DNA of 64,000 nt from Acidobacteriota bacterium (GTDB lineage: Bacteria > Acidobacteriota > UBA6911 > RPQK01 > JAJDTT01). Within the stretch, counting starts at the first letter, position 1; every line of letters starts with the position of its first letter. The stretch lies in contig OZ253580.1 of NCBI GenBank assembly GCA_965263035.1, positions 6,080,001 through 6,144,000 on the forward strand, given 5' to 3'. The translations under genes and the position numbers were made by a program. The notes below the pieces were generated by a model. That model ran no database searches and was not told the origin of the DNA. It saw nothing but the letters and a program-made list of their open reading frames with translations. Shown here piece after piece: positions 26,991-39,330 of this stretch.

Positions 26991-27056
26991 CAGAAGGGGA
27001 CATCCTTGTCCCCCGTTCTCCATTGGGAGTTCAGCGGTTGGAAACCGACGCTCCTG
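26991..27056. repeat. REP-like doublet
   Basis: AGGGGACATCCTTGTCCCC ... GCGGTTGGAAACCGACGCTCCTG. Confidence 0.65.
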
Positions 27057-34622: not shown

Positions 34623-34789
34623 CTAGGAGCCTGCGCCGCAGAAATTAATCTACTGCGAAAGCGGTAGAATCGGTCCATATTTCCTCGATTTCTCGGCGAA
34701 TAGAACAACTATGCACCTCCAAATCGAGAAAATCTGGCCTCGATTCCCCACTTTCTCGCTACGATCATTTCTACCGCGCAGACTCCTAG
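34623..34789 (-). mobile_element. MITE family A, copy 2 (inverted)
   Basis: Reverse complement of 1627-1793, CTAG on both sides. Confidence 0.88.
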
Positions 34790-34885
34790 TCGCCCAAATC
34801 CTTCGCTTATATTCCCCCTCGCACCAGTTTCCCTCTTCATCCGTCGCCTTGTCGCTTCAAGCTCCTCCGGAGTTCGGCGACTGGA

Positions 34886-35527
34886 GTCGCGGTAGGGACG
34901 CCGGTTGCCCAGCGCCCCCCGCGCAGATCCGTGCGTGCCCGTTAAGGCACACGGCTCCTACCTCAGGTAATGACGGCAGGTCGCGACGCCCGCCGTATCC
35001 GACCCCCGCCTGTGTCACGGTAGCCCGGCTCTGAGTCCGGTCCGTACTTTGGTGAGCCGAATTCCCCTTGGTTCCACCCCTTCGCTCCACCGACTCCGCA
35101 GAGAGTTCCCCCTCCTTGTTCGCCCGCTTCATCACTACTATGGGTGAATCCGATTGCTTCCTCTCTCCCCTCATGGGTTACGGCTTTCCCCTTTCCCACA
35201 AGGCCCCGGCTCTCGCCGGGGAGAGAGTAAGCCCTCCCAGGTCCCGACACCAGATGTACGTACGTGCATGGGTTCTTTGACACCGCAGAGCCCGGCTGCC
35301 CCTCACCCTGGCGGTCCAGCCGGTGTTGCCTTCGACCGCGACTACAGCCTCGGCACTTCCGATCAGGGAGCTTTCGATGCTCAATAGCCTGCCCATACGC
35401 ACCGCTACCGACGCTTCGCCGACACCCTCACGGGTGCCCACGCACGGCTCGCGGAGAAACGTGGATGGTTAGTCCTTCGTTTCAGCGGACTTTCACCGCC
35501 TATCTTGTGCCAGTTAGCCTGGCGCAC
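34886..35527 (-). mobile_element. ORF-less group II intron (642 nt) inserted in a REP palindrome
   Basis: 5' GTGCG; domain V GAGCCGTGTGCC..GGCACGCACGGATC (34957-34926); domain VI ending CCCTACCGCGAC; EBS1/EBS2 complementary to the 5' exon; only short RT-terminus remnants in domain IV. Confidence 0.9.
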
Positions 35528-35577
35528 AGTCGCCGCTCCTGCTCGGCGGTTGGAAACCGCCGCTTGTCTGTTTAAAT

Positions 35578-35744
35578 GGGGCCGTCCGGGTCGCTCATGA
35601 GCGACCCGGACGGCGGTGGCTGGACCGTACCGCCGCGGACTGTTACGAACCGTATGGGAGTGAGGTCGGCCACCGTCTTTCCCGATGTCCTGAATGGATA
35701 CGAGGGCATCAAGGCCCGAATGACAAGCACAGGAGACAGGAAAG
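35578..35744 (+). ncRNA. IS110 bridge RNA (5' hairpin, target-binding loop, donor-binding loop)
   Basis: Perfect hairpin 35581-35614; guides ACCGCCGC (35629-36), ATGGGAG (35654-60), ATGGATAC (35694-701), GACAAG (35722-27); RNA ends approximate. Confidence 0.82.
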
Positions 35745-36692
35745 ATGAAACAGCATACCGTAGGCATCGACATCTCGAAAGCGCACCTGGACGCGCACCG
35801 GCTGGCCGACGGCCATTCCGCCCAGTTCGACAATGACCCGGCCGGCTTCCGGGCGCTGATTGATTGGATCGGAACTCCGGTCGAGTGCGTCGCGTACGAG
35901 GCCACCGGTCCCTACCACCGGGACCTCGAGGAAGCGCTGTCCAAAGCGAAGCTGCCGCTGGCGAAGGTGAACCCCTGGCAGGCGCGGCGCTTCGCCGAGG
36001 CGACCGGGAGCCGCGCCAAGACCGACGCCGTAGACGCTCGGAAACTGGCCCAGCTGGCCGCCACGCTGGAGCCGCGCCGGACCCAGGTGCCGTCCAAAAC
36101 GCAACGCCGGCTCCAGGATCTGCAGACGTCCCGGGACGCGCTGATGCGCCAGCGCACGGCCGCGCTCAACCGCCGCCGACAGCTCCGCGAACCCCTGCTC
36201 AAACAGCAGAACCAGATCCAGATCAACATGTTCGAGCGCCACCTGCGCGCCATCGACCGCAAAATGCAGCAGCTGATTGCGGCCGACGAGGCGCGGGCCC
36301 GCAAGTTGGAGATCCTCACCTCCATCCCGGGGATCGCGGCCACCACCGCCGCCGGTCTGCTGGCCGAGATGCCCGAGCTGGGCGCCCTCAGCGGCAAGGC
36401 CGCCGCCAGTCTGGCCGGGTTGGCCGCCGTTCCGCGCGAGTCGGGGGCTTGGCAGGGCCGGGCCTTCATCCGGGGCGGACGGGCGCGGGCGCGACGGCTC
36501 CTGTACATGCCGGCGGTGGCCGCCCTGCGTTGGAACCCCGACTTGGCCGAGGTGTACCGGAGGCTGAGCGAGCGCGGCAAGCCCGGCAAGGTGGCCCTCG
36601 TCGCCGTCATGCGCAAGCTTATCGTCCTGGCCAACACCCTCGTCCGGCAGGACCGCACCTGGTTGCCCGTAGCGCCCCGAGCGACCTTCTGA
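35745..36692 (+). CDS. IS110-family DEDD recombinase/transposase
   Basis: GIDISK, EATGPY, AKTDAVDA, SIPGI, GLA..PRESG, AVMRKL. Confidence 0.95.
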   Translation: MKQHTVGIDISKAHLDAHRLADGHSAQFDNDPAGFRALIDWIGTPVECVAYEATGPYHRDLEEALSKAKLPLAKVNPWQARRFAEATGSRAKTDAVDARKLAQLAATLEPRRTQVPSKTQRRLQDLQTSRDALMRQRTAALNRRRQLREPLLKQQNQIQINMFERHLRAIDRKMQQLIAADEARARKLEILTSIPGIAATTAAGLLAEMPELGALSGKAAASLAGLAAVPRESGAWQGRAFIRGGRARARRLLYMPAVAALRWNPDLAEVYRRLSERGKPGKVALVAVMRKLIVLANTLVRQDRTWLPVAPRATF

Positions 36693-37086
36693 GGCCACGG
36701 AGAAACCCCGTGAGGAAAGGGAGCGTGTGGACCCCCTGATGGCCGTCTGTCGAACTTCCGGTCAAGTCTGGCCGGAAGCTTGCTTACGGCCATGAAAGCT
36801 CTTCACGCCCTGGGGAGCGCCGGGTCACCCGAAGGGTCGCAGCGAAGCGGAGGAGCCGGAGGCTTGACCCGACGCTCCCCAGGGCGTATCCGGACCTCCC
36901 GGAGGACTGACGTCGACGATCTCAGGTCCCTCGATCCAGTTATCGGTCCACTCATCGCCCCCTGCACGGCGCCCGGCGGATCCAGCTCGATCTCCGCCTC
37001 ACCTCCGGCGGAAGAACGCTCCTCCTAACCCTGTGCCCTTTGGACCGGACAGATCACGTACTAACGACACGGGATGGAAACACCGA

Positions 37087-39330
37087 TTAGCACCCACCAC
37101 TTGCAACATGGATACTCCTCTCCAGAAACCGGTCGGTGCTGTCGGGATCGATCCGGCGGCAACTCCGGCGCAGGGCGAGAGCCACCACTTCCAGGTCCCG
37201 GCTGCAGGCGGTGTCCCACTTGGAGAGCGCGGCGAACTCGCCGCACAGCAGGGCCAACCGGAGCATATGGCGAAACAGAATCCCCTCCTGCTTGACCAGA
37301 CCGCGGCTGTGGACGAACCGGTTGAAGTTCCCGCCGAGATCCAGGAGGTGCCCGGCGGCCCAGACCGGCCGAACCCTCAACTGGGAGACCTGGGGCAATC
37401 GCCCATTGAAGACGAGCCGCAGCTTGGCGGCCAGAGTCGGACCCGGACCCGCCTGCATGAGTTCCTCCCGCAACCTCGTCTCCGTCCCCCCGGCCGGTCC
37501 CAGCCGCGCCAACTCGGGATTGAGACAGTTCGTCTCCAGCGGTCCGGGGTCCAACCTTCGAGCGTCCGGTACCGGAACGGATCGGGCGACGGCTCCCGAG
37601 AGCTCCAGCACGCTCTCCAGGGCCTGAATTCGCTCGCTCCGGCTGGCCCGGGGGAGCAGATCCCTCAGGAAGTCGCCGTAGAGGGGATTGATGCCGCGAA
37701 AGGCCAGCAGCCGATCCAGCCGCGGCGTGGCCTGGGCCAACACCGGCCGGTAGTCTCCGCGGTCCTCCGGATCCGGAGGCGGCTCCGGGTCCAACGTCAC
37801 ATAACCTCCCAGCCGGAGGGTGAGCAGCATGTCATTCAGGGCTCTCTGGGCCGACTGCACCGCTCGGGCGCTGAGCAACCGCTTCCCGACCATGGCTCGG
37901 ACCTCGCCGACCCGGGGGGAACGTTTCAACAGGTAAGCCAGATACCTCCAAGGCAGGGGGCCCCGGCTGGCCAGGGCCGCCGGCCGCGCGGCGACCAGAC
38001 GGCGAAACTGGGCCTGGTCCCAAGCGGGCCGGTTCTGCCTCCCGGACCTCATCTTCCGGGCCAGGGACTTGCGAGCCTGGCGAAACGCGGACTTGCGGGT
38101 GCGGGCGGGGATCGACTCCAACCGCCGCTTGCGGCGCAGGAGTTTCACCTGTTCCTCCGGCGCCAGGGCCAGGACAAAGCCCCGCCGGTCCCATTGGGGC
38201 CGTCCGGCCCGGCCGAAGATCTGGTGGGCGGTGGTGGCGTCCAGCGCCCGTTTCTGCCGGGGCGGGCCCTTGACCAGGCTCTTCAGCACCACGGACCTGG
38301 CCGGCAGATTGATCCCGGCCGACAGGGTCTCGGTGCAGATGACCACGGGGAGAAGCCGGCGCTGGAACAACTCCTCCACCACGCGCCGGTACTTGGGGAG
38401 GATCCCGGCATGATGAACCCCCACGCCGCGCAGCAGGAGTTGCCGCAGGACGGGTCCGGCTCCGTCGGACAGGTCCAGGTCCCGTACCCGGGCGGCCAGC
38501 GTCCGCTTCCGGCTCCCGTCCACCAGGGGCCGGCCCTTGAGCCGTACCGCCATCGACCAACACTCCCGGCGGTTGAAACAGAACACCAGACAGGGGCTCC
38601 TTCGCCCCTTCTTCCCTCCCCGGACCAGTTCCACCAGCAGCTCTTCCAGCAGCAGGTCGCCGACCCACTGGTACGTCAACGGCACCCGCCGTTCCCTTCC
38701 CTGGAGCAGCTGCATTTGCCGGCCGTGGCTGTTCCGAAGCCAGCGCGTGAAGGACTCGGGACGGCCCACCGTGGCCGAGAGCAGCAGCAGCCTCACGTGC
38801 TTGGGAAGCAGCGAAAGGGACAACTCCCAGACGATGCCGCGTTCCGGGTCCCGGAACGTGTGGAATTCGTCCTTGACCACCACGGCGACGCGATCGAAAT
38901 CGAAGTTGTCGGGTCGCAGCAGGCGATTGAGGAGGATCTCGGCCACCACCACCCGTACCGGCGCGTCAGGGTTGACCTGCCGGTTCCCGGTCACCAGCCC
39001 CACGGTGTCGCCGGGGAATCCCCAGCGTACGGCGGCGGCCTGCATCTCCCGGAATTTCTGCTCGGTCAGCGCGATGAGCGGAGTGGTGTAGTAGGCCGTT
39101 CGGCCGCTGTGGAGAGCCTCGAAGAGGGCCCCTTCGGCGATCAAGGTCTTGCCGGTGCCGGTGGGCGCGGTCACCAGCAGGTCCTCTTCCGAGGCGTACC
39201 AAGCCTCCAGAGCGTCCCTCTGAAAAGGATAGGGTTTGAAAGGAAGAGACTGCAGGTAACGATCCAGCAGCTCTCGCCGCCGGGTCGAGGCTGTTTCGAT
39301 CACTCGCTGGGAGTCAGCCGTGGACCTCAC
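37087..39330 (-). CDS. Ski2-like DEAD/DEAH-box helicase; present C-terminus supplied by the IS110 right end
   Basis: APTGTGKT, DEFH, LSAT, HHAG, TETLSAGINLPAR, QIFGRAGR. Confidence 0.9.
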   Translation of the reverse strand: MRSTADSQRVIETASTRRRELLDRYLQSLPFKPYPFQRDALEAWYASEEDLLVTAPTGTGKTLIAEGALFEALHSGRTAYYTTPLIALTEQKFREMQAAAVRWGFPGDTVGLVTGNRQVNPDAPVRVVVAEILLNRLLRPDNFDFDRVAVVVKDEFHTFRDPERGIVWELSLSLLPKHVRLLLLSATVGRPESFTRWLRNSHGRQMQLLQGRERRVPLTYQWVGDLLLEELLVELVRGGKKGRRSPCLVFCFNRRECWSMAVRLKGRPLVDGSRKRTLAARVRDLDLSDGAGPVLRQLLLRGVGVHHAGILPKYRRVVEELFQRRLLPVVICTETLSAGINLPARSVVLKSLVKGPPRQKRALDATTAHQIFGRAGRPQWDRRGFVLALAPEEQVKLLRRKRRLESIPARTRKSAFRQARKSLARKMRSGRQNRPAWDQAQFRRLVAARPAALASRGPLPWRYLAYLLKRSPRVGEVRAMVGKRLLSARAVQSAQRALNDMLLTLRLGGYVTLDPEPPPDPEDRGDYRPVLAQATPRLDRLLAFRGINPLYGDFLRDLLPRASRSERIQALESVLELSGAVARSVPVPDARRLDPGPLETNCLNPELARLGPAGGTETRLREELMQAGPGPTLAAKLRLVFNGRLPQVSQLRVRPVWAAGHLLDLGGNFNRFVHSRGLVKQEGILFRHMLRLALLCGEFAALSKWDTACSRDLEVVALALRRSCRRIDPDSTDRFLERSIHVASGGC

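Follow-up and report, generated by a model that had tools for sequence, protein, structure and literature searches.

A Tandem REP Doublet Invaded by a Group II Intron and an IS110-Family Element Whose Guides Match the Same Repeat

Introduction

How do two unrelated mobile elements, each with guides of its own, come to lie side by side in one and the same repeat? This question is raised by a locus in the genome of an Acidobacteriota bacterium, at which a group II intron and a member of the IS110 family of insertion sequences (IS) interrupt a tandem doublet of repetitive extragenic palindromes (REPs). The locus lies in the window, that is, the whole stretch of 64,000 nucleotides (nt) that was analyzed (G000:C1:6080001-6144000), which belongs to a single-contig genome of 6.198 Mb and 62% G+C (the source genome, G000) and was compared here with the congeners G001-G008. 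A sequence-only reading of the window had proposed that a retroelement and a DNA recombinase converged on one multicopy REP family as a landing pad. We confirm the underlying observation, namely, a REP doublet invaded by two separately guided elements, and the convergence is borne out by the consistency of the insertion sites, the covariation of guides and targets, the presence of empty alleles, and the genes for a REP-associated transposase. The explanation that we consider very probable is that the doublet was invaded independently and recently by the guided intron and by the IS110 element, with the REP family serving as their shared pad.

Few bacterial repeats are as common as REPs, which carry a GTAG-like head, and IS110 elements now serve as tools for genome editing. 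Several IS110-family elements reside in REPs, namely, IS621, ISPa11, ISPpu9, and ISPpu10 (PMC1525189, PMC11208160). A 2015 review distinguishes three kinds of target specificity in bacterial group II introns, namely, for homing sites, for terminators, and for attC sites (PMC4424553), and a group II intron of Pseudomonas putida is REP-associated in only two of its nine copies (PMC1525189).

Results and Discussion

A REP Doublet Carrying Two Insertions

Excising the intron (34886-35527, minus strand) together with the IS110 element (35565-37116, plus strand) regenerates a tandem REP doublet, with a sequence exactly as the sequence-only reading had claimed, and the same empty allele is found in metagenome contigs. 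The spacing of the two insertion points, given in that reading as 37 bp, also holds, as the gap between the intron and the IS110 element (35528-35564) is 37 nt long. On the minus strand, the intron junctions read ..GGAGCGGCGACT/GTGCGCC...CCGCGAC/TCCAGTCGCCG (here and below, a slash marks a junction). The doublet is located between a PIG-L deacetylase gene and a DEAD-box helicase-like gene, and, as a local observation, it overlaps the unconserved 3' tail of the helicase-like open reading frame (ORF).

Empty alleles, which had been suggested as a check on the two insertions, are present both in the congeners and in public data. The orthologous flanks lie 56-200 bp apart in all eight congeners, and in the seven in which the spacer was read (G001-G007), it carries neither the intron nor the IS110 element. 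The number of REPs in this spacer is zero in G006 and G007, one in G003, two in G002 and G005, three in G004, and at least four in G001. Sequence near-identical to that of the window also occurs in public runs, some of which are labelled sponge metagenome; these data are assembled contigs, and the RNA labels of runs X15 and X17 are not evidence of transcription. In run X15, one 831-nt contig (record 9) corresponds to 34763-34885, followed by 35528-35562 and then by 37115 onward, and run X3 contains the same two exact joints, of which 34885→35528 skips 642 nt and 35562→37115, with an ambiguity of 2 nt, skips 1552 nt. Among the assembled contigs of the public runs, none spans the filled junctions with at least 31 letters on each side. 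As the empty-allele contigs retain one end (34763-34789) of a miniature inverted-repeat transposable element (MITE), this MITE is older than both insertions. Three further joints (34885→35530, 34789→35531, and 34789→35539) have short sides and were rejected, as they probably come from other REP or MITE loci.

A Dispersed REP Family and Its Transposase Genes

A site was scored as a REP if a GGAG or GTAG head was followed by a 7-nt arm, a loop of 3-8 nt, and a complementary arm with at most one mismatch. By this test, there are 616 sites in the source genome vs 98 in a genome simulated with a third-order Markov model, which upholds the assumption that the short, GC-rich palindrome is a dispersed, genome-wide family. 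Most of the 616 sites belong to nine arm types, and they fall into 474 clusters, 107 of which comprise 2-5 units; the target sites that remain unoccupied number 108 of the intron type and 91 of the IS type. The sequence-only reading had also listed five same-family palindromes elsewhere in the window, and this stands for those at 1793, 26334, and 33660, which satisfy the strict test, whereas those at 26991 and 28368 are degenerate relatives of the GGGGAC subtype.

A REP-associated tyrosine transposase (RAYT) gene flanked by these REPs had likewise been suggested as something to look for, and the source genome has one. This gene, RAYT#1, is an intact Y1 transposase gene of 224 aa at genome positions 2482816-2483487 (L002 1390-2064, minus strand), with REPs of the GGCGAC/GGCGGY type on both sides. 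The encoded protein matches PF01797 at 35-39 bits vs a cut-off of 23, the HVH and YIRENP motifs are visible in its ORF, and its best NCBIfam match is NF047646 ("REP-associated tyrosine transposase") at 73.9 bits, under the cut-off of 80. The G003 orthologue of RAYT#1 has a REP doublet downstream, and the 160 nt upstream of it are without a REP of this family. REPs of the GGGGGAC and CGGGGGT subtypes stand beside a second RAYT gene of the source genome, which contains an in-frame TAG and has these repeats as its flanks, and there are 2-4 RAYT matches per genome in all nine genomes of the genus. Both mobile elements are found beside these genes: at RAYT#1 (G000:C1:2482159-2484600), an intron copy lies 14 nt past the stop codon and an IS110 copy lies 16 nt before the start codon, each in the flanking REP, and in G007, another RAYT gene (L071) has an IS110 right end directly upstream.

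The Intron Reads the REP Head and the Adjacent Arm

The full model of RF02005 (group-II-D1D4-6) covers 35271-35493 on the minus strand at 165.4 bits vs a cut-off of 49, and the ends of the intron (5' GTGCGCC, 3' GCGAC) agree with the 5' GUGCG and 3' AY of group II introns. The source genome contains seven full copies at 92-100% identity, together with a 67-nt 5' fragment. Three of these copies share 99.8-100% identity, and close strains are polymorphic for the window copy, which is absent from the near-identical metagenome contigs.

We tabulated 31 full-length copies from six genomes (seven in G000, eight in G005, four in G007, one in G006, eight in G002, and three in G004). A GGAG or GTAG head occupies positions -12 to -9 relative to the insertion point in 28 of these 31 copies, including all seven full copies of the source genome, and the 67-nt fragment also stands behind such a head and arm; the proposed check, that the intron sites should fall on the same REP nucleotide, is thus answered in the affirmative. 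The sequence-only reading had placed the intron in the loop of the REP, with exon-binding sites (EBS) that spell the repeat. The second part of this description stands, as the window copy pairs with its intron-binding sites (IBS) at 6/6 positions of EBS1 and 5/5 of EBS2, whereas the first requires correction: the intron enters where the 5' arm meets the loop, at a constant distance of 12 nt from the beginning of the GGAG head. A strict hairpin test, with the arm ending at position -1, is satisfied by 20 of the 31 sites, and by eye, a few further sites are hairpins in which a T at -1 is the first loop base.

The pairing holds beyond the window copy. Over the 31 copies, EBS1 and IBS1 form 170 Watson-Crick and 13 G-U pairs out of 186, and EBS2 and IBS2 form 140 Watson-Crick pairs and one G-U pair out of 155. 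Moreover, guide and target change together: the EBS1 variants AGTCGC, AATCGC, AGTCCC, and GGGTGC stand beside IBS1 sequences GCGACT or GCGGCT, GCGATT, GGGACT, and GCACCC, respectively, while EBS2 GCTCC stands beside GGAG(C/G) and EBS2 CCTAC beside GTAGG-headed REPs. A candidate EBS3 shows the same behavior, in that intron positions 250 and 252 change from A to G in the three copies whose 3' exon begins with C instead of T. The three G004 copies occupy another repeated site, which is not a REP, and their EBS1 (GGATGC) and EBS2 (CATGC) fit that site, so the intron lineage is programmable and REPs are one programme among others. Class C introns insert immediately past a stem-loop and have a short IBS1 and no EBS2 (PMC4424553, PMC3001079). 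The window intron does not behave in this manner, since its entry point separates the 5' arm from the loop and since its EBS2 changes along with the REP head.

Within the order, 34 of 76 genomes contain the D1D4-6 class to which RF02005 refers, and a single genome can have as many as 25 matches. Outside the genus, no GGAG REP was seen by eye at six loci viewed, a small sample of the 22 loci found in other genera (a first pattern search caught three).

Some observations on individual copies may be recorded here. The 67-nt 5' fragment (G000:C1:4424636-4424702) has a REP-like 5' exon in front of it and unrelated sequence after it; a 5' fragment is not the product expected of incomplete reverse transcription. 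At the copies at 2437044 and 3351629 in the source genome and at L044 and L045 in G007, the 5' and 3' REP arms differ in subtype by eye, as if copies had recombined or the arms had decayed. In G035 (C51:191759-193483), three D1D4-6 matches occur in tandem, 750 bp apart.

The IS110 Element and Its Predicted Bridge RNA

The recombinase of the IS110 element has an N-terminal DEDD (RuvC-like) domain and a C-terminal Tnp domain, as the IS110 group requires. The 13 copies in the source genome share the ends TGTCTGTTTAAA...AACATGGATACT, without terminal inverted repeats, and all 12 copies for which both ends are available read ..CT/TGTCTG...GGATACT/C... Upstream of the recombinase gene, sequence logic and folding predict a bridge RNA with a 5' hairpin, a target-binding loop, and a donor-binding loop (Table 1); in a scan of 34700-37300 at E ≤ 1, Rfam has no family over this left end. 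When nine left-end variants from five genomes are aligned, hardly any change is seen in the 5' hairpin, in the outer stem, or anywhere in the donor loop, and the variation is concentrated in the left target guide (LTG), the inner stem-loop, and the right target guide (RTG). The relatives in G001, G003, and G023, the left bounds of which are ambiguous, entered this alignment only and stand outside the counts.

Ten of the 13 copies are preceded by [A/G]CCGCCGCT, and the suggested check that the IS110 sites fall on the same REP nucleotide is therefore positive for these; by eye, eight of the ten sites are clear REP hairpins, one is degenerate, and one is unclassified. The other three copies form a diverged subfamily, C, which is inserted in a MITE-like repeat (one that starts with the CTAGGAGCCTG end) at CACCGACGCT/CCCTA, and both the LTG of this subfamily (ACCGACGC) and an A-to-T change in its RTG fit this MITE-like target. 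As a side observation, similar flanks of ~40 nt are common to the three subfamily C copies. In G007 and G004, the IS110 relatives have the LTG GTCGCCGC beside ..GTCGCCGCT in three of four copies. Thus, each of the natural LTG variants ACCGCCGC, GTCGCCGC, and ACCGACGC adjoins a target that it fits. Overall, the LTG agrees with its target at 150 of 152 positions in 19 copies, including 8/8 in the window copy, and the RTG agrees at 86 of 112 positions in 16 copies, core included. The sequence-only reading had placed the element at the CT of one repeat, with bridge-RNA guides that spell that repeat. This is accurate with respect to the CT core and the LTG, and only partly so with respect to the RTG, as discussed below.

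If the element is programmed by its RNA in this way, then the IS110 recombinase together with the left-end RNA would insert at ..ACCGCCGCTCC.., and a C-to-A change in the LTG would shift insertion to ..ACCGACGCTCC... Candidate target forms for the three natural LTG variants would be ..ACCGCCGCTCC.., ..GTCGCCGCTCC.., and ..ACCGACGCTCC.., and specificity should track the guide.

Table 1. Positions of the Features Discussed in the Text (Window Coordinates unless a Genome or Locus Is Named)
Feature	Position	Strand	Basis or remark
ORF-less group II intron, 642 nt	34886..35527	-	RF02005, RF00029, seven genome copies
Intron domains V + VI; 3' end ..CCUACCGCGAC	34886..34959	-	RF00029 full model
EBS1 (AGUCGC), terminal loop of D1 hairpin, pairs with IBS1 GCGACT	35338..35343	-	Rfam alignment
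EBS2 (GCUCC), 13-nt D1 stretch unpaired in the Rfam consensus, pairs with IBS2 GGAGC (REP head)	35367..35371	-	
REP-1 3' part (loop TCC + 3' arm AGTCGCCG) = intron 3' exon	34875..34885	-	Sequence; joined to 35528 in empty-allele contigs
REP-1 5' part (head GGAG + 5' arm CGGCGACT) = IBS2 + IBS1 = intron 5' exon	35528..35539	-	
REP-2 (CGGCGGTTGGAAACCGCCGCT), left target of IS110, ends in CT core	35544..35564	+	LTG match 8/8
IS110-family element, 1552 nt; bounds ambiguous by 2-nt CT core	35565..37116	+	Shared ends of 13 copies; joint 35562→37115
Predicted bridge RNA (5' hairpin, target-binding loop, donor-binding loop)	35578..35744	+	Fold -89.8 kcal/mol, z -5.88
Predicted LTG (ACCGCCGC)	35629..35636 (IS 65-72)	+	Repeats target top strand up to core C
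Predicted RTG (AUGGGAG, complement of CTCCCAT = CT + CCCAT)	35654..35660 (IS 90-96)	+	
Predicted left donor guide (AUGGAUAC; ATGGATAC)	35694..35701 (IS 130-137)	+	Matches right end ..ATGGATA + core C
Predicted right donor guide (GACAAG, complement of CT + left-end TGTC)	35722..35727 (IS 158-163)	+	
IS110 recombinase gene, 315 aa	35745..36692	+	PF01548 81.5 bits, PF02371 68 bits, NF033542 (NCBIfam, IS110 RNA-guided transposase) 208.2 bits (cut-off 140)
Right non-coding end of IS110, 424 nt	36693..37116	+	Three genome copies ~75 nt shorter
REP-2 CC tail, start of right target	37117..37118	+	
MITE-like element, 167 nt, ends CTAGGAGCCTG.. and ..CTCCTAG, in loop region of third REP	34623-34789		
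IS110 subfamily C copies	G000:C1:653129-654683, 3695500-3696976, 1125872-1127345		
Intron family "a", ORF-bearing example	L003:1006-2853 = G000:C1:529488-531335	-	
Intron family "a", copy nearest the window	L016, G000:C1:6059981-6060612		

Two Sets of Guides for the Same 12 Base Pairs

When the repeat is written in the orientation of the intron, as GG/AGCGGCGNCT/loop, the IS110 cut falls after GG (CT/CC on the other strand), and the entry point of the intron lies 10 nt further. IBS2 and IBS1 together are the reverse complement of the left target, the core, and the first two bases of the right target of the IS110 element, such that both guide sets read the same 12 bp. These 12 bp, comprising the head and the adjacent arm, are presumably kept constant by RAYT, which would turn the family into a multicopy and mostly harmless landing pad.

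We propose the following course of events, of which the order of the two insertions is our inference. The REP pair would have arisen between the helicase-like and PIG-L genes after the split from the nearest sampled relatives, and two unrelated mobile elements would then have entered it, independently and recently. The intron probably reverse-spliced into the strand of REP-1 that carries the GGAG head, 12 nt past the start of the head, with EBS2 (GCUCC) pairing with the head, EBS1 (AGUCGC) with the 5' arm, and the candidate EBS3 adenine with the first T of the loop. The IS110 element would have entered REP-2 by bridge-RNA-guided recombination at the CT core of its tail (..ACCGCCG-CT-CC..), the LTG reading the 3' arm of the hairpin and the RTG reading CTCC and little more. 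The meeting of the two elements in one doublet would then be mainly a by-product of their shared target.

An ORF-less Intron in a Genome without Its Cognate Reverse Transcriptase

None of the seven full intron copies in the source genome contains a reverse transcriptase (RT)/maturase ORF, and ORF-bearing relatives are found in G002, G004, G005, and G007. In G002, G004, and G007, the ORF-bearing form of the same intron is 1912-1917 nt long, with ~1273 nt of additional sequence between intron positions 547 and 551. This additional segment encodes a group II RT/maturase (TIGR04416, 356.9 bits vs a cut-off of 300), in which Pfam detects RVT_1 alone and no nuclease domain. Comparison of the sequences identifies the window intron as a non-autonomous deletion derivative of this ORF-bearing intron, and since the ORF-less copies of G000, G005, G006, and G007 align end to end, a single old deletion has spread.

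The cognate RT has ten matches in G002, 12 in G007 (nine full-length, the others partial), three in G004, one in G005, and a partial one (residues 323-439) in G003. According to the 2015 review, bacterial ORF-less introns are nearly always co-resident with related RTs, and exceptions are almost unknown (PMC4424553). The intron looks to have moved recently in the source genome, whose best RTs are 33-36% identical to the cognate enzyme, and we infer an RT acting in trans.

As the RT/maturase of the parent intron is without a detectable endonuclease domain, the likely route of insertion is retrohoming at replication forks into the lagging-strand template; priming at replication forks has been described for introns that lack an endonuclease (PMC4424553). 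The direction of replication was taken from the cumulative GC skew, which places the origin at ~2.86 Mb and the terminus at ~5.84 Mb. In all eight copies of the source genome, the intron sense strand has leading-strand sense, which means that insertion was into the lagging-strand template. The binomial P is 0.008, or 0.025 when the 60% bias of the REP heads is taken as the expectation, and this orientation fits replication-fork priming. The IS110 copies show no clear strand bias (9 vs 4).

Points against Independent Guided Insertion, and Alternative Explanations

Several observations weigh against the explanation that we prefer. On the side of the intron, the match to RF00029 (D5/D6) at 34886-34959 on the minus strand, although it covers the full model (E 5e-5), scores 36.9 bits where the curated cut-off is 40. 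There is no match to the cognate RT at E ≤ 1e-50 in G000, G001, G006, or G008, and the best RTs of the source genome are 33-36% identical to it. The REP heads are themselves strand-biased (369:247), and the strand bias of the intron could instead reflect co-orientation with genes. In addition, eight of the 28 intron sites that have a head do not satisfy the strict hairpin test, and an intact hairpin is thus not required. On the side of the IS110 element, the RTG agrees with the window target at 5/7 positions with the core and at 3/5 without it, and in three copies of one subfamily, the agreement of the RTG with the target is poorer again, at 2-5 of 7 positions. No joint of the right end to the left end, as expected of a circle, is present among the contig joints, which cannot show rare forms. 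A scan of 35450-35800 found no sigma-70-like promoter, and at a hypothetical circle junction, which would read TTGCAA-17 nt-TTAAAT, the second hexamer is without the A at position 2 that the scan demands.

The independence of the two insertions also has to be weighed. If six introns and nine IS copies are placed at random among 209 and 122 compatible sites, respectively, the chance of at least one pair within 60 bp is 0.053 and that of at least two pairs within 1 kb is 0.005, both values being post hoc. Two intron/IS110 pairs within 1 kb are in fact observed, in the window doublet and at RAYT#1, which is somewhat more than expected by chance. The adjacency in one doublet is thus only modestly beyond chance, and pure independence may not suffice. 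The insertions could accordingly be linked, either through a hot spot of single-stranded, transcribed, or RAYT-processed DNA or through a first insertion that promotes the second. Besides the close pairs themselves (37 bp apart in the window; 14 and 16 nt from RAYT#1), the IS110 right end directly upstream of the G007 RAYT gene and the richness of the 2.43-2.50 Mb region in element copies point in this direction. However, the linkage test was devised post hoc on site classes defined by the analyst, REPs come in arrays such that 26 of the 209 intron-compatible sites already have an IS-compatible site within 60 bp, the remaining five intron copies and eight REP-borne IS110 copies are unpaired, and the sequence indicates no mechanism that would link the two. 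We therefore regard linked insertion as unlikely.

A second possibility is that recognition of the hairpin by the recombinase and by the intron-encoded protein creates the association with REPs, the RNA matches being secondary or coincidental. The targets are indeed hairpins and the RTG matches are loose; moreover, a logic of sequence plus structure is reported for the IS110 element ISPpu10 (2026 preprint, 10.64898/2026.03.19.712850), and group IIC introns use DNA stem-loops (PMC4424553). Against this stands the finding that, in each of the two elements, several guide positions vary together with the target, including at the non-hairpin sites of IS110 subfamily C and of the G004 introns, in addition to the intron sites noted above that are without an intact hairpin. 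Copies of the two elements in non-REP sequence had been named in advance as a finding that would speak against convergence on REPs. Three IS110 copies in G000 and three intron copies in G004 do lie outside REPs, and because their guides have changed to match these other targets, they support RNA programming. Hairpin recognition as the primary determinant thus seems to us quite improbable.

Finally, it can hardly be correct that each REP travelled as a unit together with its element, whether by RAYT-mediated REP mobilisation, by duplication, or by homologous recombination: the mixed-subtype REP arms seen by eye (for example, at 2437044 in G000 and L045 in G007) suggest recombination between copies, and the similar flanks common to the three IS110 copies in the MITE-like site would fit this too, but the copies have no flanking sequence in common past the REP, the joints of the empty alleles are exact, guides covary with targets, and element copies are far fewer than free REPs.

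Comparison with Known Systems and Implications

With independent guided insertion into a shared repeat as our reading, the two halves of the locus compare differently with what has been described. The IS110 half repeats an already known habit, and the intron half, together with a second intron family and the absent cognate RT, appears to be new. As in IS621, ISPpu9, ISPpu10, and ISPa11, the IS110 element has a DEDD and Tnp recombinase, no inverted repeats, a CT core, and a multicopy REP target (PMC11208160, PMC1525189, PMC12288879), and the geometry of its predicted RNA is that of IS621, in which a left-end RNA has two loops, with a left guide of the same sense over 8 nt and a right guide that is complementary over 6-7 nt (PMC11208160). 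It differs from these elements in its host lineage and REP family, and in that subfamilies within one genome are retargeted among REP subtypes and to a MITE-like repeat. It also departs from the trend toward a longer left end in the IS110 group, which is a tendency only (PMC11208160), with 180 nt on the left and 424 nt on the right.

The sequence-only reading had described the combination of a retroelement and a DNA recombinase on one such landing pad as one it did not know to be described, and this requires qualification. The attC sites are already shared by group IIC-attC introns and IS1111-attC elements, with both lineages on one family of imperfect palindromes, near the same end of the motif (PMC3001079, PMC4424553). 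The present case is unlike that of attC in that the repeat is a RAYT-associated REP and not an integrase site and that the IS belongs to the IS110 group, with a left-end RNA, and not to IS1111. Nor does the window intron resemble IIC introns, as its insertion point is within the palindrome, it relies on both EBS1 and EBS2, and it is described by a different Rfam D1-D4 model. What does stand is the intron half of the claim: beyond the two of nine P. putida copies in the available text of PMC1525189, we found no report of a REP-directed homing group II intron in literature that left most subscription journals, as well as supplements, uncovered.

The closest parallel to the intron is provided by the ORF-less introns of Thermosynechococcus elongatus, in which a single ancestral deletion of the domain IV ORF, with the same breakpoints, gave rise to families with diverged EBS1, EBS2, and EBS3 that match their sites (Mohr et al. 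2010, PMC2882425). In that organism, however, related RTs are resident and act in trans (PMC2882425), whereas the source genome has none above 33-36% identity, and the targets of the window intron are subtypes of one repeat family instead of unrelated unique sites.

A second group II intron family in the source genome extends the picture. Among 35 D5/D6 matches, those of family "a" (RF02001, D1D4-3, and RF01998, D1D4-1) comprise two copies with an RT frame of 515 aa and ~20 ORF-less copies. Their 5' ends lie directly past a REP hairpin plus GCTC in 23 of 24 cases, on the strand opposite to that of the window intron and one base beyond the IS110 cut, and 20 of the 24 are leading-sense. It is this family, and not the window intron, that resembles the group IIC introns that follow terminators or palindromes; family "a" behaves as class C introns are described to, a likeness of behavior and not an assignment to the class. 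A third family, "b" (RF02003, four copies), has 3' flanks without a REP. On this basis, the RAYT-maintained REP family could be a shared landing pad for three RNA-guided lineages, namely, the IS110 elements, an endonuclease-less homing-type intron that spreads mainly in ORF-less form and without a cognate RT in the source genome, and family "a", with guides that diversify along with the REP subtypes. We regard this wider proposal as evenly poised between holding and failing.

Should it hold, bacterial group II introns would have a fourth class of natural target in the REP head and arm, in addition to homing sites, terminators, and attC, and the system would show in nature how parasites of a parasite track one another by base-pairing. 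REPs are also added here to the known target range of these introns, and an ORF-less intron family looks to have been recently mobile in a genome without an RT of its own. The within-genus series of retargeted bridge-RNA guides and intron EBS sequences also offers a ready specificity data set on the subtypes of a single repeat. Lastly, the locus suggests that RAYT-driven repeats may be safe harbours for several selfish elements at once, even next to the RAYT gene itself.

Neighboring Elements and Minor Observations

The MITE-like element beside the intron (Table 1) was considered as another REP-directed element and rejected, since only one of the 112 MITE ends in the genome has a REP arm within 26 nt. 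The same count serves as a control, indicating that mobile DNA without a REP programme rarely lands in REPs. Other genera, as well as a different family of the same order, contain copies of this MITE at 87-99% identity.

The helicase-like ORF (37087-39330, minus strand) encodes DEAD and Helicase_C domains, and its last nine residues and stop codon are supplied by the IS110 right end (37087-37116; ..FLERS/IHVASGGC followed by the stop). Conservation among relatives extends up to the insertion point, and the tails past this point vary by species. In the right end of the IS110 element, pieces of the region ~36808-36873 (IS ~1244-1309) are also found by themselves at other places in the genome, in either orientation, which suggests a nested small palindromic repeat. 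On the left side, REP-2 and the first bases of the IS110 left end (window 35544-35574; ..CTTGTCTGTTT) together score as an intrinsic-terminator-like site.

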